A stretch of DNA of 64,000 nucleotides from an uncultured bacterium (lineage in GTDB: Bacteria; Poribacteria; WGA-4E; PCPOR2b), in assembly GCA_964577695.1 (NCBI GenBank), contig CAZOAL010000014.1:49250-113249 (forward strand), given 5' to 3'. The translations under genes were made by a program, and so were the position numbers. Positions 2,594-58,945 of this stretch are shown here, in pieces. The notes under the pieces are model-generated. The model was not told the DNA's origin. It did not search any database and saw nothing but the letters and a program-made list of their open reading frames with translations. Position 1 is the stretch's first letter. The number at the start of each line of letters is the position of its first letter.

Positions 2594-3403
2594 CTAAATC
2601 TTCTCAATTGCCTCCGCCGGTAGCCAGCCTGCATTCTCATCTGGCAGATAAATTTTGACCCAATCACCGCGTTCCTCTTTCAGTTGAATCTTGGTCCCTT
2701 GATGCAGGGGGCGGGTGATTTCTACAGCGTCCGGATGGGGTTCACTCCCCACCGCCACTTCGTTCGCAGTGACGATTGCATAAGGAACGTTGAGCTCACG
2801 AATTTTTAAGCCGAGAAGCAATAGGAAAAACACCCAGGTCAAGCAACCGATTAACGCAACAGAACGACATATCTGTTTGAGCCGACGTTTCCGGCTGAAT
2901 AACAGACCGATGCCACTCACTGCCGCCATCCAGTAAGGGACAAGCCCTAGCCAAACGATTTCATCAGGGTGTAAAGCACCATATAGAAGCGAGAATCCAG
3001 AGGGTGCTTTCACGAGGTCAAATTGGTCGGGATTCAGTGCCCTGGCGATTTTGAGATTGAGAACGGTCTCTTGGTCCCTTGGCATTAGCCGCTTCGCCCG
3101 TTCGTAGTTCACAATTGCCTTCCCCCGTTCCCCCAAACGAAAATAGGCATTTCCAAGGTTATAATACACGTTGCCATTGTGAATCGAAGCCGCGATCTGT
3201 TCGTACTTTTCGATTGCCTGTTGATACTGCCCACGTTCATAGTCCGCATTGGCACTTCGATAGCTTGCTTCTAAAATCGATTGGGATTGGGCGTGGGTGG
3301 ATTGTTCCCAGCAGGCAAAACAAAGCAAGCAAACGTGAAACGTGAAACGTGAAACGTGAAACGTGAAATGAATCCATTCCTTCCTTTCCTTCCATCCTTC
3401 CAT
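2594..3403 (-). CDS. TPR plus C-terminal bacterial SH3 protein (BatE-like)
   Basis: TPR repeats (YYNLGNAYFRLGERGKAIVNYERA), two transmembrane segments, and an SH3b-like C-terminus (GDWVKIYLPDENAGWLPAEAIEKI). The N-terminus is encoded by heptamer repeats, so the start is uncertain. Confidence 0.6.
   Translation of the reverse strand: MEGWKERKEWIHFTFHVSRFTFHVCLLCFACWEQSTHAQSQSILEASYRSANADYERGQYQQAIEKYEQIAASIHNGNVYYNLGNAYFRLGERGKAIVNYERAKRLMPRDQETVLNLKIARALNPDQFDLVKAPSGFSLLYGALHPDEIVWLGLVPYWMAAVSGIGLLFSRKRRLKQICRSVALIGCLTWVFFLLLLGLKIRELNVPYAIVTANEVAVGSEPHPDAVEITRPLHQGTKIQLKEERGDWVKIYLPDENAGWLPAEAIEKI
3334..3368. repeat. Tandem heptamer (CGTGAAA) x5
   Basis: Five exact copies of cgtgaaa, read directly from the sequence. 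Confidence 0.95.
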
Positions 3404-3520
3404 TCTTCAATCCTTCCATTCTTCAATCATTTGCTCATTCGCTCATTTGCCCATTTGCCCATTCGCCCATTCGCTTCCTTCCCTTCCTTCCATCCTTCCA
3501 TCCTTCCCTTTCTTCCACTC
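3376..3520. repeat. Block of tandem octamers (CCTTCCAT/TTCTTCAA, then CATTTGCC/CATTCGCC, then CCTTCCAT again)
   Basis: Read directly: atccttccattcttcaatccttccattcttca, then catttgcccatttgcccattcgcccattcgc, then ccttccatccttccatccttcc. Confidence 0.9.
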
Positions 3521-5552
3521 ACTCACTTCTTATTTCATCGTCTTGTCTCCGCTCTTTCTCGATTTCGTGAATGGCGGCTTTCGCATCATTGAGGGCACTT
3601 GCCATATCGGTGGGACTCATCGCAGCCGGCGCAAATCGTGCATAGTCACATTGTATCAACACCTCAACAAACTGCGTGGTTGAGGCTTCAGAAATACCGC
3701 TCTCCTTGCACTGTTGGCGCACCAGTTCTGGATTGAGCCCCGTTGGTGAAATCGTGAAGATGTCTCCGATGTACTGATACAACCCACTGGCGAGGGCCGC
3801 GAAGAAGGCTGCCGACCCACTTTCAATCTTTTGCTCCGCATGTTCGATGGCTCTCAGGGCGTTCCTCGTAGCGTTCTGTCCTCGCAGTTGCACGAGGTTG
3901 CGCTTCGCTCGCTGTCGCTGATAGACATAAGCGGCCAAAAGAGCGATAACGGGCAACAGTTGCATCCCCCAAAAAGAAGGGCGCTGATAGAAATAAACGC
4001 CTCCATCCGCTAATTTGACCGTAGCGGGCTTGATATATTGAATGTCTTGTTTCAACACCCGTATATCCGACTGCGTAGGCCGAACTGTCGTTGTTCCAGT
4101 AGACCCACCCGGAAGTACATTGATGGGAATAGGGACGGTACGAGCAATCTGATAGCTCTCCTTTTGGGGGTCGAAGTACGGGTACTCAATCGCAGGAATC
4201 GTCCAATTCCCCGCCTTCGATGGAATAATGACATACGCATACGTGCGGCTCCCCTGAATGTTCGATTCCGCTTCGTCCATAGCGTCTGTAATCTTGGGTG
4301 AGTATACGGTCATATTCGGGAGCGGCGGGGTGGCTGGCTCTGCCAATGTTTCGATGTTGCCCTTCCCGGATACTTGAAGCCGCAAGGTGAACCCATTCCC
4401 CGCTTCGATGGTCCCCCGCTCCACTCCGGTAACCCGTGAGTCTTCGACTTGCGCATCGATTTGATATTGACCAACGGCACCCGTGAATTGAGCGGGTTTC
4501 CCGGTTTGGGGGAGTGGACGGACGTTAATCTCGATTGCATCCGTGACTAAAACTTTCGGTGTATCGCTACGGCTATAACCGGCAAGCGCTGAGAGGGCAA
4601 GTTGAGCGGGTTCAATCGTTGTCGCCCCCGCAGTCAGCGGGAACAGCGCAACCTTGATTTCTTCAACTTGATAGGTTGTCCCATCAATCACTTCAGGGTG
4701 CCGCCGTTTCCTCGGCAGTTCTTTTTTCCAAAAGTATGTCAGCGAAGGCGGTGTGTACTTTGGGGGCTCAAGGCTTGGAATTCGCGCACTATAGAGATAA
4801 CGAAACGTGTATGTGATTTGTTCATTGACATAAGGTCTGGGGTTATCGACAAAAGCCTCAATTTTCTGAGTGACGCCGTTAAACACATCTGTAAAAGAAT
4901 TTTGTGCCCCCCCTCGCTCCCGCGCGGGCAGGGAAGTCAGTTTCTGAGATTTGGGTACAACTTCGATGAACATAGAAGCTGTCTCGTAAGTTTGGCTACC
5001 ATAAGGAACTCGAATTTTCGGGAGCGTAAACTGACCGACCTTCTGCGCTATCAGGAGGTACGACCATGTGATTGAGACGGAAATTTGAGTCCCGATCAGG
5101 TGGTATTGACTCGACGAGCCAGCATAAGAGATGCTGAATTCTTGCAATGGCTCAAGTTTTGGTGGCTGAATATCTCTGAGCTGTGTACGACCAGAGATTG
5201 TCACCTGTAAGGTTGCGCTTTCGCCAAGACGGATGGTCTTCGGGCTGACCTCTGCTGATACAGTGATATCTTGACTATAAACAGCACCGGCGTATAGGTA
5301 AACAGAGATTACGGAAAGCCAAAAAGCGTGAAACGTGAAACGTGAAACGTGAAACAGATGCAAGATGCAAGTGAATCCTGAATCTTGAATCCTGAATCCT
5401 GTATCCTGTATCCGCCGGGTTGAGCCTGTCGAAACCTTGCATCCTGAATCCTGAATCCTGAATCCTTGTTTTGCACTACCAATCCTTCTCGGAGCGTTTG
5501 CGTCTTGCCAATCGCTTTCGTAATAGTTTTTTCTGGATGTCCTTCTCGTCAT
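3519..5552 (-). CDS. BatD-like (oxygen-tolerance family) large secreted/membrane protein; the real start is probably near 5363 (TTG)
   Basis: Sits between the BatC-like and BatE-like TPR genes. About 600 aa of beta-rich repeats, a C-terminal transmembrane segment (WGMQLLPVIALLAAYVYQ), and a helical tail. The N-terminal 60 aa of the longest ORF are translated repeats (GFRIQDSG..., FHVSRFTFH) and overlap the upstream gene. Confidence 0.55.
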   Translation of the reverse strand: MTRRTSRKNYYESDWQDANAPRRIGSAKQGFRIQDSGCKVSTGSTRRIQDTGFRIQDSGFTCILHLFHVSRFTFHAFWLSVISVYLYAGAVYSQDITVSAEVSPKTIRLGESATLQVTISGRTQLRDIQPPKLEPLQEFSISYAGSSSQYHLIGTQISVSITWSYLLIAQKVGQFTLPKIRVPYGSQTYETASMFIEVVPKSQKLTSLPARERGGAQNSFTDVFNGVTQKIEAFVDNPRPYVNEQITYTFRYLYSARIPSLEPPKYTPPSLTYFWKKELPRKRRHPEVIDGTTYQVEEIKVALFPLTAGATTIEPAQLALSALAGYSRSDTPKVLVTDAIEINVRPLPQTGKPAQFTGAVGQYQIDAQVEDSRVTGVERGTIEAGNGFTLRLQVSGKGNIETLAEPATPPLPNMTVYSPKITDAMDEAESNIQGSRTYAYVIIPSKAGNWTIPAIEYPYFDPQKESYQIARTVPIPINVLPGGSTGTTTVRPTQSDIRVLKQDIQYIKPATVKLADGGVYFYQRPSFWGMQLLPVIALLAAYVYQRQRAKRNLVQLRGQNATRNALRAIEHAEQKIESGSAAFFAALASGLYQYIGDIFTISPTGLNPELVRQQCKESGISEASTTQFVEVLIQCDYARFAPAAMSPTDMASALNDAKAAIHEIEKERRQDDEIRSE
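5327..5466. repeat. Composite heptamer block: (CGTGAAA)x4, (GATGCAA)x2, (CTGAATC/TTGAATC/CTGTATC)n
   Basis: Read directly from the sequence. It lies between the BatC-like stop (5476) and the probable BatD-like start. Confidence 0.9.
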
Positions 5553-9056: not shown

Positions 9057-9165
9057 GATTTTCCTCCAAAGAATTTTCGCTTGACTCGGCAATAAAATCT
9101 TGACTTTTTGCTAACTTCAGTTTACTATACCATTGTCGTTTTGTCAAGAGATTAAGGTGTTGGGT

Positions 9166-9297
9166 AGGGTCATTTAATTATCAGTTAAGCGAACGTCGGT
9201 TGAGTAGCGATAGCGTATCGAAACCTAGTGAGCGTTGGTCTCGATACGGCTTCGCCTACTCGACCAACACTCAAAAAATCGATAATTAAATGACCCT
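9166..9297. mobile_element. MITE-like element with a 17-bp perfect TIR (AGGGTCATTTAATTATC) and a long imperfect internal hairpin
   Basis: The left end agggtcatttaattatc (9166-9182) is the exact reverse complement of the right end gataattaaatgaccct (9281-9297). Both sides are flanked by the direct repeat GGTGTTGGGT. Confidence 0.6.
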
Positions 9298-9342
9298 AGG
9301 TGTTGGGTGTTAGTAATCCCTAAAAGGACAGAGGTTTTTCGC

Positions 9343-9696: not shown

Positions 9697-10674
9697 ATGC
9701 AAAAATCAAAATTCACAATCTTTATTATTCTGCTCTGCGCCGGACTTTTAGCGACCTGCGCCCCGGTGCAACGAGAACCTCAAGAGAAACCGCAGCTCCG
9801 TTCCGAGAGTCCGCAAGGCGGACCGGGTCAGGCGACGGAACAGGTCAGCCCCACAGACGGCGCGAAGATGGTCCTTATCCCCGCCGGTGAGTTCTGGATG
9901 GGGACGGACGCCAACGAAATTCCACAGCTTGTCGAGTGGGCAAAGAAGCATTACAGCGATACCCAAGCCAGTTGGTTTGAAGATGAGGCCCCTCGTCATA
10001 AGGTCTATGTCGATGCGTTTTATATTGACAAATACGAGGTGACGAATGCACAATATCAGAAGTTCATGAGAGCAACTGGACATCCAATGGTTGCAACCGC
10101 ACGGGACTCAAGATTCAATGCCCCAACTCAACCGGTCGTGGGTGTAACGTGGTACGATGCCATGGCTTACGCGAAGTGGGCAGGGAAACGCCTGCCGACG
10201 GAAGCGGAGTGGGAGAAGGCGGCGCGTGGAGGGTTGGAAGGAAAGAAGTATCCGTGGGGCAATCAGGACCCAGATGGTTCTCAGTGCAACTTTGCGGATA
10301 AAAACGCGCCAAGCTATTGCAGTTGGGCGGATAGGAATGCCAACGATGGTTATCAATACACCGCCCCTGTTGGGAAGTATCCACCAAACGGCTACGGCTT
10401 GTATGACATGGCTGGGAATGTCTGGGAGTGGTGCCTGGACGAACACGATAGCGGTTTTTATGCCAAAAGCGCTGGTCGAAATCCAGTGGGTGGAGCTACG
10501 AACATAACGGATATTATATCTGATTTCACGAATGTTACAGAGTTCCGCGTCCTTCGCGGCGGTAGCTGGAACGGCACTTCGGACGGCGTGTGCGTGGCGG
10601 GCCGCGACGGCGGCGCCCCGACGAACGCGCACGACAGCCTCGGTTTTCGTTGCGCAGGATCGGTTACCCCTTAA
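9697..10674 (+). CDS. Formylglycine-generating-enzyme (FGE/SUMF1) family lipoprotein
   Basis: Lipoprotein signal (LLCAGLLATC). Motifs GVTWYDAMAYAKWAGKRLPTEAEWEKAARGG, NVWEW, RVLRGGSW and GFRC. Confidence 0.85.
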   Translation: MQKSKFTIFIILLCAGLLATCAPVQREPQEKPQLRSESPQGGPGQATEQVSPTDGAKMVLIPAGEFWMGTDANEIPQLVEWAKKHYSDTQASWFEDEAPRHKVYVDAFYIDKYEVTNAQYQKFMRATGHPMVATARDSRFNAPTQPVVGVTWYDAMAYAKWAGKRLPTEAEWEKAARGGLEGKKYPWGNQDPDGSQCNFADKNAPSYCSWADRNANDGYQYTAPVGKYPPNGYGLYDMAGNVWEWCLDEHDSGFYAKSAGRNPVGGATNITDIISDFTNVTEFRVLRGGSWNGTSDGVCVAGRDGGAPTNAHDSLGFRCAGSVTP

Positions 10675-10699
10675 TCCCTTTACCCCTTTACCCCTTTCC
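10667..10699. repeat. Tandem octamer (CCCTTTAC-like) overlapping the FGE stop codon
   Basis: ccccttaatccctttacccctttacccctttcc, read directly. Confidence 0.8.
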
Positions 10700-12194: not shown

Positions 12195-14138
12195 ATGACT
12201 GGTAAGCGAAATGCTGAACGTCATCGCCCCATTTTTATCGCGCAAGTCGCCCGACTTGTACTTGGGTGGCACAGATTGATGGATTTACGCGATATGGATG
12301 AGAAATTGTCACTCAAAATCGAGCTTATCAAGCAGATTGGCTGGCTAGTCAAGTTGCGTTGGATCGCAATCACGGGTGTATTTGTCACCGTTGGTGTTGC
12401 GAGCTGGGGACTCCATATCATTGAGCAGCCATTGCCGCTGTTCGCGATCGCCACGCTGATGGTGCTCTACAATTTTGAGCCACAGATTTATCCCAAACAT
12501 ATCACAGAGAAACCCCTCGCATCGATTAAGCGGCACGCTGGAGCGCATATCATACTGGATGTGCTGTCGCTAACGGCGCTGATCCATTTTAGCGGCGGCG
12601 TCGAAAACCCGTTTATTTTCTACTTCATCTTCCACTTGATCATTGCCAGCATTATTCTCTCTAAAAGAGTGAGCTACATTCTCGCCACATTCAACACTGC
12701 CCTTCTGAGCTCCCTTATTTTCCTGGAGTATTATCACATCCTGCCTCACTATCATCTTGAAAATTTCTTGCCTGAAACGCTCTGGCGGGATGGACTCTAC
12801 ATTTCAAGCGTGCTGTTTGTGTTCACAAGTACCTTGTTTTTTTCTGTCTATCTGGCAACATCAATTATGGACACGGCAAGAGCCCGTGAAGCGGAAACGC
12901 GCGAGTTGAAGGAGAGCCTGGAGGAAAAGGTCGTTGAACTGGAAAAAACAAGGAAAGAGGTGCTCTTCGAGCGCAATAAACTCAAATCAATCATTGAGTG
13001 TATGCAGGAAGGGGTTGTCTTTGTCGATGACAAACACCGGGTGTCCCTATTCAATAAAGCCGCGCAGCAGATCAGAACAGAGAAATTAGGATTGGATGTC
13101 GAATACAGCCCCCACGCTCCGATTGGAGATTTTCCCCCGACAGCGCCTGCCTCGCGCCATCGGGGTTCGCGAGTTGCGCGCGGCGAAATCCCACAAAGCG
13201 GAAGCTTTGCTTCGCTCGAGCTATGTCCTGAAACTTACGGACCTCTGTTGCAAATTGCGGAAGAATTATCGAAGGGACACGCTGTGATTGAACACCAGAG
13301 CCTCCAACTCAAGGACAAGTTTTTTGAAAACACTTACTCTGCGGTGCGCGATGACACCGGTCACTATTTAGGGACGGTGCTGGTTTGCCGGGAGGTGACA
13401 GATCGGAAGCGAATGGAACAGCAGATGATTCAATCTGAAAAGATGGCTGCGATTGGAGAGTTGGCGGCAGGCGTTGCACATGAGATCAATAACCCACTGG
13501 ATGGCTTGCTCAATTGTATCCTGCGAATCAAGCGCAACCCAAAGAACGAAGAGCAGACCCAAGAATACTTGGATCTCATGGAAGAAGCCATTCGGCGGAT
13601 TGAATCGACGGTGGGACAACTCCTTAACTTTTCGCGTAAACATGAACTTGCGCTCACGTTGATTCCCTTGAATGAGGTTGTCGATGAGGTTGCGGTTTTG
13701 ATTGCATACAGCGCGGACGAAAAAGGCATCCGAATCGAGGAGCAGTTTCAAGCAGACCTCACTCCCATCCTTGGGGATAAACATCTTTTAGAGCAGGTGG
13801 TCCTGAATCTGGGACTCAACGCGATTGCCGCCATGCCCGATGGCGGTGTGCTGACTTTTAAGACCGGGAAGATCGAATTTGATTCCCTGCTCGGCGAGGC
13901 GGCTGTCTATGTCCAGATCACAGATACAGGAATTGGCATTCCGAAATCGGTTCAAGATCGAATTTTCGATCCGTTTTATACAACAAAGCTCACAGAGAAC
14001 GGCACAGGGCTTGGACTTTCCGTATCCAATCGAATCGTTAGACAACATGAGGGAGTGATTGAATTTGAAAGTGAGGTGGGCCGAGGTTCCACATTTACCG
14101 TTAAATTACCCATAAGGAGGATTCGAGAAGACACATGA
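12195..14138 (+). CDS. Membrane sensor histidine kinase (multi-TM, PAS-like, HisKA, HATPase_c)
   Basis: H-box AAGVAHEINNPL, an N-box, and the G-box TGIGIP...GTGLGLSV. The N-terminus has about 6 hydrophobic segments. The true start may be a downstream Met (about 12279). Confidence 0.85.
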   Translation: MTGKRNAERHRPIFIAQVARLVLGWHRLMDLRDMDEKLSLKIELIKQIGWLVKLRWIAITGVFVTVGVASWGLHIIEQPLPLFAIATLMVLYNFEPQIYPKHITEKPLASIKRHAGAHIILDVLSLTALIHFSGGVENPFIFYFIFHLIIASIILSKRVSYILATFNTALLSSLIFLEYYHILPHYHLENFLPETLWRDGLYISSVLFVFTSTLFFSVYLATSIMDTARAREAETRELKESLEEKVVELEKTRKEVLFERNKLKSIIECMQEGVVFVDDKHRVSLFNKAAQQIRTEKLGLDVEYSPHAPIGDFPPTAPASRHRGSRVARGEIPQSGSFASLELCPETYGPLLQIAEELSKGHAVIEHQSLQLKDKFFENTYSAVRDDTGHYLGTVLVCREVTDRKRMEQQMIQSEKMAAIGELAAGVAHEINNPLDGLLNCILRIKRNPKNEEQTQEYLDLMEEAIRRIESTVGQLLNFSRKHELALTLIPLNEVVDEVAVLIAYSADEKGIRIEEQFQADLTPILGDKHLLEQVVLNLGLNAIAAMPDGGVLTFKTGKIEFDSLLGEAAVYVQITDTGIGIPKSVQDRIFDPFYTTKLTENGTGLGLSVSNRIVRQHEGVIEFESEVGRGSTFTVKLPIRRIREDT

Positions 14139-15532
14139 AGGTACTGGTTGTTGACGATGAAAAGATTAAACGGATTACCCTGCGCGATGACCTGCGCGAG
14201 GCAAATTATGAGACCATTGCGGTTGAGTCTCCCACCATTGCGCTACAACTTTTGCAGAATGAATATTTTGATGTCCTTGTGACTGACCTGCGAATGCCTA
14301 AGATGCACGGAATTGAGTTTCTCAAGCGTGTCAAAAAAGAGTATCCACAGATGACCGTGATTATTATGACCGCTTATGCCAGCGTCGAAACGGCTGTGGA
14401 AGCGATGAAATTTGGGGCTTATAACTACATCAAAAAGCCCTTTTCGAGCCATGAACTGATTGTCATGTTGGATAAACTGAAGGGACTCCGTGGCGGGGAG
14501 GGGTTTGAAACCCGCGCGTATCCAGTTCACATGGAGCAGCGGTATCCGTATCACGATATCATTGGGAAAAGTCAGTCGATGAAAGAGATCTTTAACTTGC
14601 TTGAAACGATCTCCGATTCGAGCAGTAACGTGCTGATTTACGGTGAAAGAGGCACAGGAAAAGCGCTGCTTGCAAAATCCATCCATCTCAATAGCTTGCG
14701 CCGGCATCAGCCCTTTGTGGCTGTCAACTGTGCTGGCATATCGAAAGAGGGATTAGAGAGCGAAATCTTTGGACAAGAGAAGCCCCCCCTCCTCAATTCA
14801 CCCCCAACATTGGCAGAGGAAGGCGAGGGGGCAGATACCCCCGATCGGAAATCGGGGTTCAAGTTAGCGCATAAAGGCACGCTTTTTCTCAAAGAAGTGA
14901 ATCACACTCCCGCTGAGTTTCAAGCCAAGCTACTCCGCATCCTCGAAGAACTGGCGTTTGAGCGAGTGCGAGGAAGCCGGACAATTCACGGAGACGTTCG
15001 GGTGATTGCCTCAACGACGGAAAATTTGCGAAATAAAGTTCAAAGCGGTGCCTTTCGGGATGACTTATTCTATCGGCTGAATGTGGTCCCAATCTTTCTA
15101 CCCCCCCTGCGTGAACGGGCGGAGGATATTCCCCTCTTAATCAACCATTTTCTAGAGCTATTCTCTCCCAATCGTCCCATCCACAGTGCCCCCCAGGCGG
15201 TCGAGCTGCTGATGGGATACCCATGGCCGGGAAATGTACGCGAATTAGAAAATGCTATTGAAAGACTTGTAACGGTTGGCGGGGGTCGAGATATCACCGT
15301 TGAAGATATTCCACTCGAATTCAAACTGCCGACCTCTATCGGCCTTCATGATACATTAGGCGAGACTTCGTTTCAGGAGATTATCCAATCGACGGAACGC
15401 GAACTCATTGCCTGGGCAATGCAGAAGACAAAAGGGAACAAAACCCAGGCGGCAAAGCTGCTTAAAATGAAGCCTTCCACCTTCCGTGACGCCCTCTCCA
15501 AATACATCAACGAGATTGAGTGGGAAAGATGA
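14135..15532 (+). CDS. NtrC-family response regulator (REC, AAA+ sigma54-interaction domain, Fis HTH) lacking the GAFTGA motif
   Basis: REC (VLVVDDE...DVLVTDLRMP), Walker A GERGTGK, GAFRDDLFYRLNV, RERAEDI, and a C-terminal HTH (NKTQAAKLLKMKPSTFR). It overlaps the kinase stop by 4 nt. Confidence 0.85.
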   Translation: MKVLVVDDEKIKRITLRDDLREANYETIAVESPTIALQLLQNEYFDVLVTDLRMPKMHGIEFLKRVKKEYPQMTVIIMTAYASVETAVEAMKFGAYNYIKKPFSSHELIVMLDKLKGLRGGEGFETRAYPVHMEQRYPYHDIIGKSQSMKEIFNLLETISDSSSNVLIYGERGTGKALLAKSIHLNSLRRHQPFVAVNCAGISKEGLESEIFGQEKPPLLNSPPTLAEEGEGADTPDRKSGFKLAHKGTLFLKEVNHTPAEFQAKLLRILEELAFERVRGSRTIHGDVRVIASTTENLRNKVQSGAFRDDLFYRLNVVPIFLPPLRERAEDIPLLINHFLELFSPNRPIHSAPQAVELLMGYPWPGNVRELENAIERLVTVGGGRDITVEDIPLEFKLPTSIGLHDTLGETSFQEIIQSTERELIAWAMQKTKGNKTQAAKLLKMKPSTFRDALSKYINEIEWER

Positions 15533-15595
15533 GGGGGGCGGAAATAGAGGGGGAAGGATGGAAGCAAGGAAAGGGAGGGAGAAAACGAGGAAATG
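15531..15595. repeat. Purine-rich degenerate GGAAGG-type repeat block
   Basis: gaggggggcggaaatagagggggaaggatggaagcaaggaaagggagggagaaaacgagg. Confidence 0.7.
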
Positions 15596-15773
15596 AGCAT
15601 GTCTCACGGGATACGCATTACATATTACGCATGACGCCTTTATAGCACATGCAGGTGAGCGCAACCTAACGGTTCAGGGTTCAACTCCCCGCGCCTGAGA
15701 CACTGGAAAACACAAAGCATTGGTTGGTGTGGGGCGGCTGCAATGGGTATTAGGCAACAATTTACAATGTGAT

Positions 15774-16268
15774 TTATTTGCCTGTGTTCGGAATTTCTTT
15801 AATTCTTATTGTCGCGTTTTTTTGATTGTAATCAATTTCTTCTATGACCATGAAAAACTTACGCCCCTGATATTGAAAGTCAACCCTGTGGCCTACGAGC
15901 CATCTATTTATTCCTATAATACTCCTCGTCCTGTCTGGCAAGGTATATCTGCTAAGAACACCTCTCGTTCCCAGGAAATTTGTAATCTCATCAACGGCAA
16001 AAACAAATCCTGTTTCTTGATCCACATAAGCTTTCTGTTCCCCAACAACTTTTACTACTTCATATAGTTTATACGAGGTAGTATAGTCATTACTTTGCTC
16101 CACTGACTTAGGATTGTCCACTTGTTGTTCAGTGCCTGTAGCTGATTTACTGGACTGTTTATCCTTCGGTTCATTTGAACCTGTTCCTGAAATCTGATAA
16201 AATCGAAAGCACGGCGACGAAACCACAGCAGAACCCTTCCAAATCCTTCTTGTCACCTTAAAACTCAA
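15774..16268 (-). CDS. Hypothetical protein (no recognisable family), co-oriented with and overlapping the upstream retropepsin-like gene
   Basis: 164-aa ORF with a TTG start and an 11-nt overlap with 16258..16644. The region is visibly AT-richer than its surroundings. Confidence 0.35.
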   Translation of the reverse strand: MSFKVTRRIWKGSAVVSSPCFRFYQISGTGSNEPKDKQSSKSATGTEQQVDNPKSVEQSNDYTTSYKLYEVVKVVGEQKAYVDQETGFVFAVDEITNFLGTRGVLSRYTLPDRTRSIIGINRWLVGHRVDFQYQGRKFFMVIEEIDYNQKNATIRIKEIPNTGK

Positions 16269-21453: not shown

Positions 21454-21530
21454 CGATCAAACCTCTTATACCATTTTTAGTTTGAAATGCGACGATTTGT
21501 CGGGAACCCAATCCCCCTCACTCACATCTA

Positions 21531-21574
21531 ATGCTAAATGCTAAATTTAGCATTTAGCATTTAGCATTTAGCAT
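21531..21574. repeat. (ATGCTAA)x2 abutting (TTAGCAT)x4; includes a perfect 30-nt palindrome
   Basis: 21531-21560 atgctaaatgctaaatttagcatttagcat is its own reverse complement. Two more TTAGCAT units follow. Confidence 0.95.
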
Positions 21575-21890
21575 TGTCATAGAATAGTCGCATCTGGAAG
21601 TCCAAATGGTATTATCTGTTAATAACTTCCGAACGACCTTAAAGCCGGGTTTGTTTGCTCTGGCCCCGGCTTCAATCTGCTCCCATGTCATCTGACTAAA
21701 CTCAGCCCAACTCTGTGAGCCTTTTGGAAGTTGAGCCTGTTTAACGCTTCCTTGCTTTTGCTTGAGTATATCAGCAACTTTTTGCCCCGAGAACTTATGT
21801 ACAATTTTCTTTGCCTCCCTTTTAATTCTTGAGGTGGGTGTGTGCCGCGCTCCTTCACCCTTCTACTGTAACCTGAACGTGCTTTGACGC

Positions 21891-24816: not shown

Positions 24817-24887
24817 TGTATGCGGAGATTATATCACGGCATTGTATCTCTGTCAACCTGAAGTGAAAATGACAGTTGGAACGGGAT

Positions 24888-24910
24888 GCGTAAAACGTAA
24901 AACGTGATTG
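24888..24910. repeat. Heptamer repeat, GTAAAAC variant
   Basis: gcgtaaaacgtaaaacgtgattg. Confidence 0.8.
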
Positions 24911-25126
24911 ACAGTATTGAATCGAGAATGTTATCATTGCGGCATGTACCGTTATCTTCCACGTTCACCATCAAGATTTGGAGGGGCATGAAGCCATTTC
25001 TACGAAAATCGGTCCCATATTAGGAACGAATTTTCAGGACTTGTTGAACGATTGGCGAGATTATTGTCGCCGTGAAGGAGAGCGCGCATTGGTCTGATGA
25101 CCATGTCCTCCTTGCACCGTGCGCAA

Positions 25127-26881
25127 TCATTGAGCCGCGCTCCCTTCAATGACTTCGATGACACGATTCACCTCGAGGTCGGCGTACCGATCGCTCCGTC
25201 CAGATGGCCAAATCACCTCTAGCGATTCAACCCTTTTGCTTTGCCCTAACCCGAAAGTGAGCACCGTTTCACTCTGAGAGCAATAGCTACTTCCCGTCCG
25301 AACTATCCGTCGTTGCGTCACGCCCCCCGCTTTGATGATCATTTTTGCACCGATGCCGTCTCGATTACTCCCCCCCCCGCCCGCGGGGGGGACCAAAGGG
25401 GAAATGCCCCTGACCCCCCCGTGGACGGGGGGGGTGCCAATCGTTTTGACACGCAGATAGTTGTTCCGATTCCCGCCATCATTTCGTAATAGCCACGCCT
25501 TCCCATAATCTGGATGGACGCCGTTGTTGGAGACCAGCACATCGACATCCCCATCGTTATCATAGTCACCGTAGGCTGCGCCGCGTCCGACGCCCAGCTT
25601 CCCAAGCCCAACCTGGGAAGCGATCTCCTCAAAGGTGCCGTCATGCCGATTCCAAAAGAGTGACGGCAGTTGTGTGTAGCTCACATTCTGCTGATATCGA
25701 CCCACATCCGGCTCAATGTGGCCGTTCACGCAGAACAGGTCCAGGTAGCCGTCCAGATCGAAATCGAAGAAGAACAGACCGAATGTCAACGTGAGCAGGC
25801 TTGCGTTTCCAATCTTCACTCGCGTTGCCAGATCGGAGAAGTAATCCCCCGGGCGGGCATAGAAAAACGCTGTCATTTCGTTGCTGAAATTCCCGATTGA
25901 GATTGCAAGCCCGCCATCGTTATGCACATCCGCCGCGTCGATTCCCATGCCGCCTCGTGCGCTTCCGCTCTCATCGAACGCAACGCCCATCAGGATGGCT
26001 TCATCAGTGAATGTACCATCACCGTTGTTGTGATACAGGAAATTCGGCTCGGTATCATTCGCAACGGCGAGGTCCAGCCAACCGTCGTCGTCATAGTCCA
26101 GCAACGTCACGCCGAGCGACTTGCCGTTGGGGTTGTAGACGCCGGACGATGTGGTTACATCTTCAAAAGTCCCATTCCCACGGTTATGGTAGAGGCGACA
26201 GGATTGGCCCGGATAAACGCTCGGTGTGCAGTAAGATGGGTGCCGGTGATCGACTGTGCAGGGGATATCCGTTTCGATCGTCCATTGCACATAGTTGCAC
26301 ACGAATAAATCCAGCCAGCCGTCTCGATCATAATCGAAAAACGCGGCGCTCGTAGACCAGCTTGGGTCCCCAACCTTTGCTATCTCGGTCACATCGGTGA
26401 ACGTGCCATCCCCGTTGTTGCGGAAAAGTCGATTAGGACCCAGATTGGTGAAGTAGAGGTCGGCATCTCCGTCGTTGTCATAATCGGCGATGGCGACGCC
26501 CATGCCGTACATCGACACGTCTAACTTTGCCGCACGGGTGACATCGGAAAACCTGCCATCCCCCAGATTGCGATAGAGTTTGGGCGTCTGATTGGACTTG
26601 CCATCACTCCAACTTTTCCCATTGACGAGGAGGATGTCCAAATTTCCATCGTTGTCGAAGTCAAGGAAGGCGCAACCTGCCCCCATCGTTTCAGGCATAT
26701 ATCGCTTCCCGGCCGCTCCGGTGAAATGTCTGAAATCAATCCCCGCCTGATTGGTGACATCAACGAACTTCACAGCGGGGGGGGTAGCATAACTGGTTCC
26801 GATGCAGAGGGTGAGCGCGAAACATAAAACGTGAAACGTGAGGGGTGAAACGTGAAACGTAAAACGTGAGGGGTGAGGCAT
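25127..26881 (-). CDS. CRTAC1-family secreted protein (FG-GAP/VCBS repeats plus ASPIC/UnbV C-terminal domain)
   Basis: Repeated D-x-D-x-DG-x-x-D motifs (DFDNDGNLDIL, DYDNDGDADLY, DYDRDGWLDLF, DYDDDGWLDLA, DFDLDGYLDLF, DYDNDGDVDVL) and an UnbV-like tail (NRDGIGAKMIIK...RTGSSYCSQSE). Confidence 0.8.
   Translation of the reverse strand: MPHPSRFTFHVSPLTFHVLCFALTLCIGTSYATPPAVKFVDVTNQAGIDFRHFTGAAGKRYMPETMGAGCAFLDFDNDGNLDILLVNGKSWSDGKSNQTPKLYRNLGDGRFSDVTRAAKLDVSMYGMGVAIADYDNDGDADLYFTNLGPNRLFRNNGDGTFTDVTEIAKVGDPSWSTSAAFFDYDRDGWLDLFVCNYVQWTIETDIPCTVDHRHPSYCTPSVYPGQSCRLYHNRGNGTFEDVTTSSGVYNPNGKSLGVTLLDYDDDGWLDLAVANDTEPNFLYHNNGDGTFTDEAILMGVAFDESGSARGGMGIDAADVHNDGGLAISIGNFSNEMTAFFYARPGDYFSDLATRVKIGNASLLTLTFGLFFFDFDLDGYLDLFCVNGHIEPDVGRYQQNVSYTQLPSLFWNRHDGTFEEIASQVGLGKLGVGRGAAYGDYDNDGDVDVLVSNNGVHPDYGKAWLLRNDGGNRNNYLRVKTIGTPPVHGGVRGISPLVPPAGGGGSNRDGIGAKMIIKAGGVTQRRIVRTGSSYCSQSETVLTFGLGQSKRVESLEVIWPSGRSDRYADLEVNRVIEVIEGSAAQ
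26818..26878. repeat. Heptamer repeat block (GTGAAAC/GTAAAAC/GTGAGGG) inside the 5' end of the CRTAC1 ORF
   Basis: cgaaacataaaacgtgaaacgtgaggggtgaaacgtgaaacgtaaaacgtgaggggtgagg. Confidence 0.9.
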
Positions 26882-28100: not shown

Positions 28101-28186
28101 TTCAAGATTCACTTGCCTCCTGCATCTTGTATCCTGCATCATGAATCCTGCATCTTGTATCTTGAATCCTGTATCTTGAATCTTGT
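28101..28186. repeat. Heptamer block (TGCATCT/TGTATCC/TGAATCC variants)
   Basis: ttcaagattcacttgcctcctgcatcttgtatcctgcatcatgaatcctgcatcttgtatcttgaatcctgtatcttgaatcttg. Confidence 0.9.
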
Positions 28187-30351: not shown

Positions 30352-30420
30352 GTGAAACGTGAAACGTGAAACGTGAAGCGTGAAACGTAATGCGTAATGC
30401 GTAAAACGTGATACGTGATT
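30352..30420. repeat. Heptamer block (GTGAAAC x4, GTAATGC x2, GTAAAAC, GTGATAC)
   Basis: gtgaaacgtgaaacgtgaaacgtgaagcgtgaaacgtaatgcgtaatgcgtaaaacgtgatacgtgatt. Confidence 0.95.
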
Positions 30421-30430: not shown

Positions 30431-31126
30431 CTATTCATCTTTGGTGGCGAATGTAATGTCGATCTTTATGGTATTCCCCACTTCATCCTTAGCCAGACCT
30501 TCGATGATATAGGTTGCATGATGAACAAGCCCTTTTCCTTCCGGCGGCTTAATGGTCACGGAATCTTCTCCCCAACTCGGCATCCAACCGAGTGCATCTT
30601 CGCCTTTAGGCCTGATGTCAATCGTGCCTTGGCGGACACATATATTAAACCGAATCGTGATACCTTCGGCATTCAACAACTCTGGGGCAACGTCCTCATC
30701 TCCATTTTTCACACTCGCCCATACAATGCTCGGCGGTCCGATGTCCACATACCCCTTCACCACACGCAAGGTAATTTTAGCACCGGGGCCGCTAGAACCG
30801 TCCCTGTTTGTCCATGCGATAGTAAATGTTGCTGATGTCCCAATGGCAAAGAAACATTTCGTTTGACCACCGATGAGGTATAAATCGTGGCTGTCCAAAA
30901 GTATAGTTGCCCCCTCAACATAGACATCGTGTCCATTGACGGTAACAGACAGCGGTGGCTGATCAAAGTTTAACTTCAATTCCCCATAGAAAGGTATTTC
31001 GCCCCCATCTGGAGGCTCACTGCCGATGAAGTTCACTATTTCCCCATCGCCTCCACAACTACAAACTATCAGGCAGATTAGACTTAAAAACACAATGCAA
31101 AGCGTCTTTTCGTTCTTCAGTCTCAC
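30431..31126 (-). CDS. Putative lipoprotein, beta-rich (Ig-like), hypothetical
   Basis: Signal plus lipobox (CIVFLSLICLIVCSCGG). Confidence 0.5.
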   Translation of the reverse strand: MRLKNEKTLCIVFLSLICLIVCSCGGDGEIVNFIGSEPPDGGEIPFYGELKLNFDQPPLSVTVNGHDVYVEGATILLDSHDLYLIGGQTKCFFAIGTSATFTIAWTNRDGSSGPGAKITLRVVKGYVDIGPPSIVWASVKNGDEDVAPELLNAEGITIRFNICVRQGTIDIRPKGEDALGWMPSWGEDSVTIKPPEGKGLVHHATYIIEGLAKDEVGNTIKIDITFATKDE

Positions 31127-37168: not shown

Positions 37169-37311
37169 GGCGTGAAACGTGAAATGAAGGGAAGGAAAGG
37201 AAGAATGGAAGGATGGAAGGATGGGGGGAAAGCAATCTTCCATTCTTCCAATCTTCCAGCCTGCTAATTTCTCAACCCTCCAGTCTCTTCACGTTTCACG
37301 CATCACGCAAC
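37169..37311. repeat. Inverted short-tandem-repeat block filling the convergent mutS / isomerase spacer
   Basis: gcgtgaggcgtgaaacgtgaaatg + ggaaggaaaggaagaatggaaggatggaagg ... ccattcttccaatcttcc ... ttcacgtttcacgcatcacgc. The outer and inner arms are mutually complementary. Confidence 0.85.
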
Positions 37312-41232: not shown

Positions 41233-41353
41233 GCATTTTGTTATAGTATTTTGGGGCGTGGTCGTAAAGCTCATCCCGAGCTTGGTTCGGGGCTATTGAA
41301 GATTGCCAATTTTCAATCTTCAATCTTCTAATAATCAGTACGCCGTGATGCTC

Positions 41354-41404
41354 CCGTTGGATTGCCACATCCAACGGCTTAATCGGGATTTGGCAATCCC
41401 GATT
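41354..41404. repeat. Two hairpins of the GGATT-TGSC-AATCC family in the 5' leader of the TPP-enzyme gene
   Basis: ccgttggattgccacatccaacgg and aatcgggatttggcaatcccgatt. Confidence 0.7.
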
Positions 41405-41458
41405 GAGCGTGTTTGCGGACTACTAATAATCAATCAAATAAGTACAAGGAGATCTATT

Positions 41459-43096
41459 GTGAAAGGTGTTGACGCAGTTGCAAAGGTTTTGAAGATAGAA
41501 GGTGTTGAGTATCTCTTCTGCTTTCCGGCGAATAGTCTCATTGACGCCGCGGCGAAGATCGGCATCAGACCCATCATGGCTCGCACAGAGCGGACGCTGA
41601 TCAATATGGCAGACGGCTTCAGCCGCATCTCCAATGGCGAACGGTTAGGTGTCGCTGTGGTACAATCGGGTCCCGGAAGCGAGAACGCCTTTTCAGGCGT
41701 GGCACAAGCGTTCTCGGATTCCGTTCCGATCTTGCTATTACCGGGCGGGGTTTCCCGTCGGAATCAGGATAACCCACCCCATTTCGAGGCAGTCAAAAAC
41801 TACAAAGGTGTCACGAAATGGGTCGCCCAGATCAACTTCGCAGACCGCATCCCGGACATGATGCGCCGTGCGTTTAGCCTGCTCCGAATGGGGCACCCTG
41901 CGCCGGTGATGTTGGAAATTCCGACAGATGTCTGTGCCGAGGAGATTGACGACAATTTCGAGTACAAATCGCCCAAACGGACCCAATCCATTGGCAATCC
42001 ACGGGATATTGAAGCGTCGGTGAAGGCCCTACTTGCGGCAGAAAATCCGATCCTTCATGTCGGGCAGGGCGTCCTCTATGCTGGTGCAACGGAGGAGCTC
42101 ATTGAGTTTGCCGAGTTGCTGCAAACCCCTGTCATGACGACGATGCCCGGTAAAAGCGCGTTTCCTGAAAACCATCCGCTATCGCTTGGATCCAGTGGAT
42201 ACACCGGCACCGGGATGGTCAAGCATTTCCTGAAGAAAGCGGACCTCGTTTTCGGACTTGGGTGCGGTTTTTCAAAGTCGATCATGTGTACGAAAATTCC
42301 GAGTGGCCTGATCATGATTCAGAACACCATCGACGAGCTCGACATCAACAAGGATTACGCGATTGATTACGCGATTATCGGCGATTCCAAATTGGTCTTG
42401 GGGCAATTGATCGATGAAGTGAAAAACCAAATCGGAGATGAAGGCAGGCGAGATAACAACGCCGTAGCGCAAGAGATCAAAGTTGTGAAGGAGCGTTGGC
42501 TTGCAGAGTGGATGCCGAAACTCACATCGGACGAAATCCCGATCAATCCCTATCGGGTGATTTGGGACTTGATGCACGCCGTGGATCGGACGCAAACGAT
42601 TGCCACCCACGACTCCGGGAATCCGCGAGATCAGATGCTCCCCTTCTACGAAGCAATTATCCCACATGGCTATATTGGGTGGGGCAAGTCCACACAGTTG
42701 GGATATGGACTAGGGTTGACGATGGGTGCGAAACTGGCTGCGCCGGAGAAGTTGACGGTCAACGTTATGGGCGATGCCGCCTTCGGTATGGCGGGGATGG
42801 ATTTTGAAACAGCCGCCCGGGAACGCATCCCCATCCTGACGATTATTCTCAACAACTCCGCGCTCGGTGGCTATGAGCACCACATGCCGGTGGCAACAGA
42901 ACGCTACAGGACAAAGTTCCTCTCAGGGAACTACGCGAAGGTTGCAGAGGGCTTGGGTGGCTACAGCGAGCGGATTGAGAGCCCCACAGATATTATCCCC
43001 GGCATCCACCGCGCCCAGAAAGCAATTGCATCCGGCAAGCCCGCACTCCTCGAAATTATTACACGGGAGGAGGGCGCGTTCTCAAGGGGATACTAA
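41459..43096 (+). CDS. Thiamine-pyrophosphate-dependent enzyme (acetolactate synthase / sulfoacetaldehyde acetyltransferase-like)
   Basis: The GTG at 41459 follows AAGGAG. VKGVDAVAKVLKIEGVEYLFCFP at the N-terminus and the TPP motif GDAAFGMAGMDFETAARERIPILTIILNN. Confidence 0.85.
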   Translation: MKGVDAVAKVLKIEGVEYLFCFPANSLIDAAAKIGIRPIMARTERTLINMADGFSRISNGERLGVAVVQSGPGSENAFSGVAQAFSDSVPILLLPGGVSRRNQDNPPHFEAVKNYKGVTKWVAQINFADRIPDMMRRAFSLLRMGHPAPVMLEIPTDVCAEEIDDNFEYKSPKRTQSIGNPRDIEASVKALLAAENPILHVGQGVLYAGATEELIEFAELLQTPVMTTMPGKSAFPENHPLSLGSSGYTGTGMVKHFLKKADLVFGLGCGFSKSIMCTKIPSGLIMIQNTIDELDINKDYAIDYAIIGDSKLVLGQLIDEVKNQIGDEGRRDNNAVAQEIKVVKERWLAEWMPKLTSDEIPINPYRVIWDLMHAVDRTQTIATHDSGNPRDQMLPFYEAIIPHGYIGWGKSTQLGYGLGLTMGAKLAAPEKLTVNVMGDAAFGMAGMDFETAARERIPILTIILNNSALGGYEHHMPVATERYRTKFLSGNYAKVAEGLGGYSERIESPTDIIPGIHRAQKAIASGKPALLEIITREEGAFSRGY

Positions 43097-43140
43097 AAGA
43101 GGCATGTTTCAAATTCCTGAAAAAATGAGTTGACACTTGA

Positions 43141-43206
43141 CGTAATGCGTAAAACGTAAAACGTAAAGCGGGCTGAATGACGTTTTACGGGTTACGTTTT
43201 ACGGGT
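43141..43206. repeat. Inverted heptamer block (CGTAAAA)n / (TTTTACG)n
   Basis: cgtaatgcgtaaaacgtaaaacgtaaagcgggctgaatgacgttttacgggttacgttttacggg. Confidence 0.9.
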
Positions 43207-43283
43207 TCCGCCGGATTGAGTTTACCGAAATCTCGAAATGTACACAATTTTCTGAAACATGCCCGATAACGGAGGAAACTCTC

Positions 43284-47450: not shown

Positions 47451-47470
47451 TGGTTTTTCTCCTATGTCTA

Positions 47471-51152: not shown

Positions 51153-51193
51153 GAGGTGTCAGGTGTTAGGTGTTAGGTGTTGGGTGTTAGGTA
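51153..51193. repeat. Tandem heptamer (GGTGTTA/GGTGTTG) about x5
   Basis: gaggtgtcaggtgttaggtgttaggtgttgggtgttaggta. Confidence 0.9.
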
Positions 51194-58928: not shown

Positions 58929-58945
58929 GAAACGTCGCGGGGAAA

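Follow-up and report, generated by a model that had tools for sequence, protein, structure and literature searches.

On a 64,000-nt stretch of DNA from an uncultured member of the Poribacteria (contig CAZOAL010000014.1 of assembly GCA_964577695.1, positions 49,250 to 113,249; in the following, the window), about 20 spacers between genes carry tandem arrays of 7-nt and, in some cases, 8-nt units, which fill some of these spacers nearly completely and are present in others just as a short remnant. We consider it fairly probable that these blocks are slippage-prone simple sequence repeat (SSR) arrays, heptameric and in part octameric, of the same kind as short tandemly repeated repetitive (STRR) sequences and heptameric SSRs, which persist where they are harmless and have been absorbed into leaders and signal peptides. 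Their words and their lineage are new; the kind has already been described, namely as STRR, GGGAATC, and TAACTGA repeats. As far as can be judged from the ORFs and their orthologues, the GTTTCAC arrays at batD, at a BatE-like TPR gene, and at a CRTAC1 gene are probably translated and lie within the signal-peptide coding ends of these genes.

Occurrence and authenticity of the arrays

Tandem repeats were called with Tandem Repeats Finder (TRF) over the whole window, calls with a period of 7 or 8 or a multiple thereof were merged into blocks, and 30 dinucleotide-preserving shuffles served as the null. The 29 blocks obtained in this way cover 1,154 nt, compared with a mean of 2.6 blocks and 50 nt and maxima of 7 blocks and 170 nt in the shuffles. 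On the curated map of open reading frames (ORFs), core coding sequence holds three of the 29 blocks, one of which is the batD leader, against 66% expected (p about 8e-10). This enrichment outside genes upholds what an earlier note on this DNA had supposed, and both marks of heptameric SSRs, head-to-tail 7-nt units far above chance and a strong bias towards gene boundaries, are present in the window, whose GC content is 50.4%. Every block that the earlier note had located turned out, by TRF and reading, to be a tandem or degenerate tandem 7- or 8-mer of the family named, and its figure of at least 18 spacers is in line with our count of about 20. That the spacers consist largely of repeats is true of 3404-3518, 30352-30418, and 51151-51196, but not of 24817-25126, where 17 of 310 nt are array.

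The same arrays were found in public contigs of two other datasets. L001 (Logan SRR6155503) covers window positions 50249-56189 with an identity of 100%, and L002 and L119 (both JGI 3300010391) cover 47818-52480 and 15188-32464 with 99.96% and 99.954%, respectively, none of them showing a gap; nine to ten arrays are equal base for base. Since these are reproduced exactly in independent contigs, we do not regard the arrays as assembly artefacts. Furthermore, relatives, including multi-megabase contigs, bear arrays at orthologous sites, and arrays stand in frame within conserved genes. The idea that they are short-read assembly artefacts or chimeric joins at low-complexity sequence, a risk already named with their first description, finds some backing in public contigs that stop inside arrays (L001 at both ends, window 50249 and 56189, and the relative L120 at its start, window 26871), but given the exact copies and the orthologous arrays its probability is practically negligible. 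The 90%-cluster mate of purF and the homologues of BatD and CRTAC1 are all annotated as Candidatus Poribacteria bacterium.

Probable location of arrays in signal-peptide coding ends

The junctions between arrays and genes were read codon by codon, and gene families were assigned by Pfam. Immediately ahead of the signal-peptide core of BatD (gene 3519..; AFWLSVISVYLYAGAVYS before QD), a direct (GTTTCAC)4 array is located at 5327..5355 on the minus strand. Between it and the stop of the upstream TPR gene (5476), (TGCATCT)2 and (GGATTCA/GGATACA)n arrays occupy 5356..5466 (minus), which are open in the batD frame (GFRIQDS..) and are missing from L134, a relative with 92-95% identity to the window. 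The spacer from batD to the BatE-like TPR ORF (2594..3403) is filled by composite octamers with the sense words GGAAGGAT, GGCAAATG/GCGAATGG, and GGAAGG (3373..3516, minus), which provide the ATG of that ORF (3403). Inside its 5' end, a direct (GTTTCAC)5.4 array (3331..3368, minus; TRF, 5.4 copies, 100%) codes for ..HFTFHVSRFTFHV.. directly ahead of the hydrophobic core CLLCFACW, and an orthologous array is present in L122, L121, and L134. At the third gene, an array of GTTTCAC, GTTTTAC, and CCCTCAC units (26819..26876, minus) inside the 5' end of the CRTAC1 (FG-GAP/ASPIC) ORF 25127..26881 encodes PSRFTFHVSPLTFHV ahead of the signal-peptide core LCFALTLCIGTSYA before T. The description of the arrays as intergenic stands for most blocks, but probably fails at these three genes, where the array is inside the longest ORF and orthologues keep array peptides.

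By codon reading, no in-frame ATG, GTG, or TTG lies between array and core in CRTAC1; the only in-frame exceptions are one TTG directly ahead of the batD GTTTCAC array and one TTG inside the TPR core. About 84 BatD homologues with 53-62% identity, from many Poribacteria contigs of up to 6.8 Mb, nearly all show F[HY]VSRFTF[HY]ALRF or a decayed form of it directly before the core. At least seven residues of the cyclic peptide are kept in 66 of the 120 listed BatD homologues, all 66 at an identity of at least 53%. At identities of up to 52%, the signal peptides are short and canonical, such as MRPFVLGAYLVSIFFYSSTAHS before QD in P0099; the corresponding DNA (L123) has an array-free spacer of the ordinary type, with AGAGGAG and ATG.

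Contig L122 (5.16 Mb) provides the clearest upstream context. Its batD has GGAGG, 10 nt, and an ATG after the upstream stop, followed by about 27 codons, the array, and the core; its TPR gene has GAGGAG and an ATG, starts with MKGWKNGRVADKARFVSRFTFLICFLCF, where the window has MEGWKERKEWIHFTFHVSRFTFHVCLLCFACW, and keeps its frame through the array. As L122 carries almost no other arrays in 22 kb, those at batD and the TPR gene are fixed parts of these genes. The N-terminal end MGT..AQDKAFKRSGV of BatD orthologues was considered as an out-of-frame shadow of the upstream gene, and this was rejected, as in the DNA of L122 it stands after the upstream stop and behind its own GGAGG. Among BatD orthologues the distance from M to AYSQ is 51, 48, 44, 43, 41, or 35-37 residues with the frame kept, and the lengths before batD in the window and L134 differ by 51 nt, both being in frame from an ATG preceded by a Shine-Dalgarno sequence. 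The lack of a start between array and core, the Shine-Dalgarno-preceded ATGs upstream, and the frame kept through independent length variants make translation of the arrays likely. It becomes probable with the array relics in orthologues of BatD (down to about 53% identity) and CRTAC1 (down to about 64%). Closer CRTAC1 orthologues reveal ..SYVSHFTFHVVRFTLFLC.. (P0140) or FHV-type relics. In one class further away the signal peptide is MRTFVLSCVLICLCIRAEA, with 20 residues, and the class with 26 residues, MPRLSYHVFLLTFFL.., may be a decayed array.

Repeats of other types were met in or near the same genes. The CRTAC1 orthologues P0141-P0146 have an N-terminal extension with a 5-residue (15-nt) tandem repeat, IHKTG/IHKAG, which is another repeat class absorbed into the signal-peptide region of CRTAC1. 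In L123, the Poribacteria relative free of arrays, a long tandem array with units of 63, 103, and 165 nt follows directly after batD (11650-12451), and each unit holds a GGGGCATCCTGCCCC hairpin.

In-frame inserts encoded by heptamers are also found in membrane-protein genes at one verrucomicrobial and two Anaerolineae loci, e.g., RMQNAECRMQNE..RFTFHVSRFT. On the verrucomicrobial contig L113 (587-6550), three paralogous membrane-protein genes of GT39-like/TPR type have such inserts in frame and in equivalent loops, namely (RMQNAEC)n and (RFTFHVS)n. Comparison of VSRFTFH, RMQNAEC, MEGWKDGR, and GFRIQDS repeats with the curated Pfam and NCBIfam families gave no match above cut-off. A protein database search with (VSRFTFH)6 gave 746 candidates and eight weak matches, the latter being short hypothetical proteins of Desulfococcaceae and Chloroflexi, and is silent on the position of the peptide in proteins. 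Rickettsia palindromic elements, dispersed elements of 100-150 bp inserted in frame in protein genes, are similar in that repeats with an open frame are tolerated in permissive parts of coding sequence, but differ from the tandem heptamers described here.

Array dynamics among relatives

At 0.05% divergence the arrays are invariant, with no indels in nine to ten of them, whereas at 5-8% they are remodelled. Relatives share array-occupied spacers, whose arrays vary in length and sequence (window compared with L120, i.e., GCA_016178185.1, 93-95% identical, and with L134; the BatD site across the clade); by these alignments, the arrays are persistent at some sites across the clade. The CRTAC1 array is composed of different units in L120 and the window. 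In the TPR-to-batD spacer, L134 has 12 GTTTCAC units where the window has four units plus about 110 nt of GGATTCA/TGCATCT arrays, and its batD-to-TPR spacer contains (GCAAATGA)4, (GCATTAC)3, and (GTTTCAC)4. Moreover, the BatD of L134 has an array-derived C-terminal tail and stop (ending in ..ERNVQMSK), and its TPR ORF opens at an array-derived ATG (MSKWTSYALRITHYVSRF..). A pair of AATGCTA and TAGCATT arrays belongs to a 146-bp segment (21470-21611) which is missing from L120 (7090-7105; 95% identical) and shows TACCATTT inverted ends and a TA/ATAA duplication; this difference could be due to an insertion or to a microhomology deletion.

Phase variation by slippage had been proposed at the outset. 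As contingency loci, the arrays would switch genes through frame shifts, 7 not being a multiple of 3, or through promoter spacing. Several features are as such loci would have them: short-unit repeats, with a unit length coprime with 3, stand in promoter regions and, for three proteins that are secreted or at the surface, in the 5' end of the coding sequence, the copy number differs between relatives (4 in the window, 12 in L134), and the only Shine-Dalgarno-preceded ATG of the window past the upstream stop (GGATGCAAGG, about 5440) is the equivalent of one unit out of the batD frame. Unlike contingency loci, the arrays display no heterogeneity in copy number between near-identical assemblies, as there are no gaps across nine to ten arrays at 99.95-100% identity. 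Most are imperfect, being broken by variant units, and many precede housekeeping rather than surface or virulence genes, their neighbours including nadC, a Gfo-type oxidoreductase gene, and a URO-D-like gene. In addition, the length variants of orthologues keep the frame. Altogether, switching of this type seems very improbable to us, and the proposal is not supported.

Strand orientation

It is correct, as had been pointed out for this DNA, that (GTTTCAC)n reads as VSRFTFH in all three frames and is stop-free, while the opposite strand contains TGA. In the six GTGAAAC-type blocks listed earlier at gene 5' ends, GTTTCAC is indeed the sense word, and a seventh block (56966-56995, gene 56553..56918) agrees. 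In the window, sense orientation in seven of seven 5'-end arrays corresponds to a two-sided p of 0.016. Three of the seven (batD, the TPR gene, and CRTAC1) are forced by translation, however, and the remaining four of four are not significant (p = 0.125). All seven genes are encoded on the minus strand, and a chromosome-strand effect may be behind the uniform orientation. GGAAGG arrays are sense in three of three cases in the window, while TGNATCY arrays occur in leaders in both orientations.

Orientation outside the window was assessed at 116 foreign loci with (GTGAAAC)4, among the matches listed. In co-directional spacers the two orientations stand at 38:35, and at 46:40 for all 5'-proximal arrays, so that a general strand bias is not seen; 41 of 41 arrays inside ORFs are in the stop-free orientation, necessarily. 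The orientation rule is therefore just the avoidance of stops where arrays are translated, and no general rule exists beyond it. A coding constraint on repeat orientation was already pointed out for TAACTGA by MacGregor in 2015 (PMC4679880). In leaders there may be an extra factor, as (GUGAAAC)n would bring GUG starts and UGA stops ahead of the gene, whereas neither is contained in (GUUUCAC)n.

Leaders and promoters

At two genes for cytoplasmic proteins, the array is followed by a Shine-Dalgarno sequence. Upstream of a Gfo/Idh/MocA gene (29257..), 9.6 units of GTTTCAC and variants (30352..30418, minus) fill the space from the stop of 30431..31126 to the Shine-Dalgarno sequence AAGGAGA, which, like the ATG (30330), is downstream of the array; as RNA, this array is unstructured (z -1.5). 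Ahead of the URO-D-like gene (46371..), the sense strand of 47470..47582 (minus) carries GGAAGGAT-type units, (GGTGTTA)3, and six GTTTCAC/GCATCAC units, again with a Shine-Dalgarno sequence (AGGAGAA) and the ATG (47450) downstream. In both cases the array ends 22-25 nt ahead of the ATG, with a good Shine-Dalgarno sequence in between.

At nadC and an LPG-synthase-TM gene, by contrast, the array abuts the start codon in place of the Shine-Dalgarno sequence. The unstructured nadC leader, running from a TATAAT-type -10 (site 51220..51193) to the ATG (51150), contains (TAACACC)6 on the sense strand (51154..51196, minus), which reaches to within a few bases of the ATG, lacks a Shine-Dalgarno sequence, and has an array identical in L001 and L002. 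The LPG-synthase-TM leader consists of about ten TGNATCY units (ATCCTGC/ATCTTGT..; 28118..28186, plus), which end 3 nt ahead of the ATG (28190), likewise without a Shine-Dalgarno sequence. A promoter-like site lies upstream of both arrays, computed for nadC and read by eye for the LPG synthase, where it is an extended -10 (TGgTATAAT) just upstream.

A remnant of (GTTTTAC)2.4 (24889..24905, minus; TRF, just 2.4 copies) is flanked by two divergent promoter-like sites, a perfect TTGACA-17-TATAAT (24856..24828, minus) and an 11/12 site (24908..24937, plus). L120 has six intact units here, and the array has decayed in the window with a 6-nt indel; the promoter beside it is identical in both. The plus-strand site faces the 310-nt spacer behind CRTAC1. 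In L120 (1760-2074), about 455 extra nt are located there, with a 104-aa ORF on the strand of the plus site, and the comparison of the two sequences suggests that a gene was lost from the lineage of the window.

Arrays at or beside start codons, two of them in the place of a Shine-Dalgarno sequence, and one exactly between two divergent promoter-like sites could point to cis-regulatory binding arrays, whose heptamers would be read by an RNA- or DNA-binding protein (cold-shock, S1, CsrA-type, or a transcription factor) that coordinates the genes. MacGregor proposed a regulatory role of this type for TAACTGA (PMC4679880), and according to a preprint, deletion of heptamer repeats in Nostoc had modest effects, shifting promoter activity 1.5-2.9-fold (bioRxiv 10.1101/2022.06.06.494920). 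The small number of word families in the window, the sense orientation of seven of seven GTTTCAC and three of three GGAAGG arrays, and a BatD array core kept at about 55% identity would also fit. The GGA-rich words GGAUUCA and GGAAGGAU presumably count here as well, resembling CsrA-type motifs. On the other hand, the position of the array relative to promoter, Shine-Dalgarno sequence, and ATG varies from gene to gene, and orientation is not fixed either, as seen from TGNATCY in leaders and from the ratio of 38:35 in foreign spacers. The array at 24889 has decayed though its flanking promoter is 100% conserved, families have been swapped at the same spacer between 92%-identical relatives, and the array-bearing genes have no common function. 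We know of no binder of these arrays. A regulatory role is therefore unlikely in our estimation, if far from absurd.

Inverted array pairs and hairpins

Folding of the arrays as RNA was scored by energy and z. Direct arrays are unstructured, with z about 0 (-4.5 kcal/mol and z +0.3 for (GUUUCAC)5, -0.4 kcal/mol and z -0.6 for (UAACACC)6), whereas five of six inverted pairs reach z values of -3.8 to -8.4. RNA structure, offered earlier as one possible function, thus applies to the inverted pairs (z down to -8.4) and not to the direct arrays. The pairs have no strand assigned. GTGAAAC and GGAAGGAT arrays facing their complements form a 147-nt hairpin between convergent genes (37169..37311; region 37168-37314, -64.9 kcal/mol, z -7.0), and (GGATGGAA)3 facing (CTTCCATC)4 forms one between co-directional minus-strand genes (56127..56189; region 56120-56195, -43.8 kcal/mol, z -8.4). 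The hairpin of (GTAAAAC)4 and (GTTTTAC..)n comes after the 3' end of 41303..43096 (43140..43207; region 43130-43215, -34 kcal/mol, z -4.5), and that of GATACAG/GATTCAG and GCATCTT/GTATCTT directly after the nadC stop, where it is identical in L002 (50208..50288; region 50200-50295, -27 kcal/mol, z -3.8). The (AATGCTA)n/(TAGCATT)n hairpin is loop-free (21530..21575; region 21520-21585, -22.4 kcal/mol, z -5.2), and degenerate GGAATGGAAGG facing TTCCTTCC-type units gives a weaker hairpin after the YlxR-like ORF 63561..63848 (63881..63960; region 63875-63965, -30.8 kcal/mol, z -2.7).

Five of the six pairs are situated behind gene 3' ends or between convergent genes, and the sixth (21520-21585) is inside an insertion resembling a miniature inverted-repeat transposable element (MITE). 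None of these hairpins has a U-tract, so they resemble stem-loops of the repetitive extragenic palindromic (REP) type rather than canonical intrinsic terminators. They share with REP sequences and bacterial interspersed mosaic elements their stability and their location, mostly behind gene 3' ends, but their arms are built of tandem short units. The window obtained no Rfam match at gathering score and contains no tRNA.

True REP-like palindromes occur separately in the window. A family of 35-nt perfect palindromes (AAGAAACCGAGTTTTTTGGAAAAACTCGGTTTCTT) is found at 31816-31845, 41114-41149, 49029-49064, and 58944-58979, just behind the stops of minus-strand genes. It constitutes a REP-like or terminator family of its own, in which one copy, with a 16-pair stem and a T-rich tail, has a terminator-like score. 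A second palindromic family is based on GACTTCCGAAGTC / GACTTCGGAAGTC (29180-29229, 33890-33957, and 43435-43484).

Other arrays and features of the window

Arranged by family, GTGAAAC-type arrays were called by TRF at 3331-3368, 5327-5355, 24889-24905, 26819-26876, 30352-30418 (9.6 copies), 43140-43167, and 47470-47512 and were read by eye at 37169-37190 and 56966-56995. TGNATCY arrays are located at 5356-5466, 28118-28186, 50208-50288, and 57048-57067, and GGAAGGAT-type arrays at 3373-3516, 37190-37224, 47533-47582, 56127-56189, and 57119-57260, with degenerate copies at 15531-15600 and 63881-63960. The remaining words are AGGTGTT at 51154-51196, with its complement TAACACC at 47514-47536, AATGCTA/TAGCATT at 21530-21575, the TTACCCCT octamer at 10664-10697, the CATTTGCC type at 3427-3475, and CTATCGTC at 57270-57318.

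A GGTGTTR array (9150..9310, no strand assigned) is split by a MITE-like insertion (9160-9300) with 16-nt inverted ends GGGTCATTTAATTATC and a TA duplication. The (TTACCCCT)4 array (10664..10697, plus) overlaps the stop of an FGE-sulfatase-type gene (9697..10674). The spacer of the convergent genes 14135..15532 (plus) and 15774..16268 (minus) contains a purine array of degenerate GGAAGG type and, after it, GCATTAC units that have decayed (15531..15650, plus). About 50 nt upstream of the ATG of 56553..56918, the region 56966..57067 (minus) shows, on the plus strand, GTGAAAC, GTAAAAC, GTGATGC, and GTGGGAC and then TGCATCT/TGAATCC units. Long TTCCTTCC-type arrays, pyrimidine-rich on the plus strand, together with (CTATCGTC)6 occupy 57119..57318 (minus), and (CTATCGTC)6 overlaps the 3' end of ORF 57270..58988.

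Beyond the arrays, MITE-like elements of about 140 bp with the inverted ends CGCCAATGTCACATT / AATGTGACATTGGCG are present at 10776-10925, 46211-46275, and 47770-47935. A 435-bp tandem duplication with 78% identity (27115-27981) corresponds to two adjacent Asp_protease_2-like genes, and a third related copy is found at about 33980-34420. A short ORF (43285-43510, plus) that adjoins the 43140-43207 hairpin has the beginning of a Gfo/Idh/MocA oxidoreductase (MSKLRVAVLGCGGRGRGH..) but soon reaches a stop, and in all probability represents a truncated pseudogene. The ORF 54671..55753 (plus) was rejected as a mis-call, since public gene calls place the real gene on the opposite strand (54617..55645, minus).

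Occurrence in other genomes and relation to known repeats

Among the matches listed, (GTGAAAC)4 occurs in at least 116 stretches of GTDB species representatives, including many Anaerolineae and Chloroflexia as well as Verrucomicrobiota, a Desulfococcaceae isolate, Acidobacteriota, Gemmatimonadota, Nitrospirota, some Proteobacteria, and Bacteroidota. Again among the matches listed, single genomes hold three to nine loci, with at least nine in Desulfococcaceae HSG8, five each in Anaerolinea CH3 and Chloroflexia Co_metawrap_852, and four in Verrucomicrobiota SPRUCE_325. Period 7 dominates the tandem repeats in these loci (451 of about 1,100 TRF rows, with many other words), and the host genomes are heptamer-rich in general. 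In viral contigs, (GTGAAAC)4 was found in 2 stretches compared with 6 and 2 for composition-matched permutations, and the control word (GAGTACA)4 is present in at least 120 metagenome stretches. As composition-matched controls are also abundant, there is no support for GTGAAAC as a special word.

This distribution bears on the question of whether dedicated machinery writes or moves the arrays, by templated synthesis, a transposase or recombinase, or gene conversion from master copies, with horizontal spread between phyla. Few words at many sites, multi-copy (GTGAAAC)4 in single genomes of at least four phyla with the dominance of period 7 there, a whole family that one of two close relatives has at a spacer and the other lacks, and one array (21530..21575) inside a MITE-like insertion are what such machinery might leave behind. 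Yet consistent flanks, target duplications, and terminal repeats are lacking in the arrays, as is a common higher-order unit order, the control word is abundant too, the core that is unique to the window-specific segment of the batD leader was found just once, and no candidate enzyme was identified; the notion is improbable in our view. Equally doubtful is its more far-reaching version, in which the words would not come from random slippage but be specified by a dedicated system common to Poribacteria, Chloroflexota, Verrucomicrobiota, and Desulfobacterota through horizontal exchange, either a templated or recombinational array writer or a conserved factor that binds the arrays, and the stop-free, frame-neutral arrays would act as portable cassettes, giving genes new start codons and signal peptides.

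Other identities were compared as well. The arrays share no common flanks that would mark them as MITEs, and only the 21470-21611 segment has terminal inverted repeats and a duplication. With contiguous units of 7-8 nt, they also differ from clustered regularly interspaced short palindromic repeats (CRISPR), which have repeats of about 25-40 nt and unique spacers. GTTTCAC is a half-site of the universal parS palindrome TGTTTCACGTGAAACA, but a link to parS was rejected in view of the lack of any parS-like site or head-to-head junction: the 16-bp palindrome TGTTNCACGTGAAACA has no match in the window at up to 2 mismatches, and a head-to-head GTTTCACGTGAAAC junction was detected neither in the window nor in any fetched locus. 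No description of these words was found in the literature on GTGAAAC/GTTTCAC repeats and on repeats in Poribacteria, Chloroflexi, and Verrucomicrobia.

The STRR words of heterocystous cyanobacteria are CCCCART, TTKGTCA, and CAACAGT, none of which is among the TRF consensus units of the window. The likeness to STRR pointed out earlier is nevertheless justified, as the elements are of the same kind with different words: several heptamer families form tandem arrays that are dispersed mainly outside genes. The phylum differs as well, the homologues of window genes being from Poribacteria and not from cyanobacteria. STRR were first described in Calothrix PCC 7601, as cited in PMC4692102. According to the same source, citing Mrazek 2007, heptameric SSRs are over-represented in many bacterial genomes, and polymerase slippage was proposed for them.

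A Xanthomonas genome contains about 185 GGGAATC arrays whose anatomy is the same, found in the same spacers with variable content (Rehm et al. 2015, PMC4692102), and the window and its relatives behave alike. Common to the Xanthomonas GGGAATC and Nostoc GGGGAYT arrays, which number hundreds per genome and typically have about four units near ORF starts or ends (PMC4692102), and to those of the window are one or few heptamer families with single-base variants, a strong non-coding bias, inverted pairs capable of forming stem-loops, and neighbours of all functional classes. In contrast to them, the words of the poribacterial window are not G-rich and have no G-quadruplex potential, octamers are mixed in, and several arrays are inside N-terminal coding sequence and persist in orthologues.

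The TAACTGA arrays of marine Beggiatoaceae have 2-6 units, mostly a few nt upstream of starts (MacGregor 2015, PMC4679880). Canonical ribosome-binding sites are often missing there and direct arrays have no RNA structure, much as in our nadC and LPG synthase leaders; in both systems, one strand carries stops and the other encodes a 7-residue cyclic peptide, and the words recur in distant phyla. The sense strand of TAACTGA has stops in all frames and cannot enter ORFs, whereas that of the window arrays is stop-free and is absorbed. The window further differs in its many word families and common inverted pairs, and the word TAACTGA is missing from its TRF units.

Proposed origin and implications

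In the SSR reading that we prefer, replication slippage, local duplication, and array inversion would make and remodel the arrays, which would accumulate at gene boundaries, where they do least harm; translation of the arrays and slippage as the generator, like any effect of the arrays on expression, are things we infer, whereas their anatomy, enrichment, turnover among relatives, relics in orthologues, and folding are observed. GTTTCAC, GGAAGGAT, and GGATTCA are stop-free in every sense frame, so that arrays beside gene starts can be absorbed into the reading frame. In BatD, the BatE-like TPR protein, and CRTAC1, the array would be translated within a loosely constrained, presumably cleavable signal peptide, to which it would donate start codons and basic and hydrophobic residues, and in L134 also a C-terminal tail and stop. 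At genes for cytoplasmic proteins the arrays would stay upstream of the Shine-Dalgarno sequence, and at nadC and the LPG synthase gene the array would stand in its place as an unstructured leader. An array next to its own reverse complement would fold into a long REP-like hairpin.

Several observations weigh against this reading. As an array free of stops never closes the frame and octamers with an ATG supply one in every frame, an upstream in-frame ATG is weak evidence alone, above all for the TPR gene. In CRTAC1 (548-aa call, L119) and in the BatD of L134, the array is left out by the JGI gene caller. BatD orthologues with about 55% identity have kept the array core almost intact, and this could reflect selection on the nucleotide word rather than tolerance. 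Simple in-situ slippage gives no reason why few words fill more than 20 spacers, nor does it account for the presence or absence of a whole word family at one spacer within 8% divergence, and the sense orientation of four of four untranslated arrays is left without explanation. The few words, the whole family appearing within 8% divergence, and the intact BatD core keep the regulatory-binding and writer/mover readings alive.

Abundant intergenic heptamer arrays were already on record for cyanobacteria, Xanthomonas, and giant sulfur bacteria, and the window adds uncultivated Poribacteria with new words. Of greatest use among the new points is that arrays have probably become part of signal-peptide coding sequence, which matters for gene calling, as gene callers set starts inconsistently at array-bearing genes. 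The arrays also fragment short-read assemblies and could seed chimeric joins in metagenome-assembled genomes, whose annotation in array-rich lineages calls for care. For the Poribacteria themselves, stop-free arrays appear, from comparison with orthologues, to have been absorbed into the N-terminal signal-peptide region and kept through long divergence, and such absorption would render protein N-termini, and sometimes C-termini, hypervariable between close relatives.

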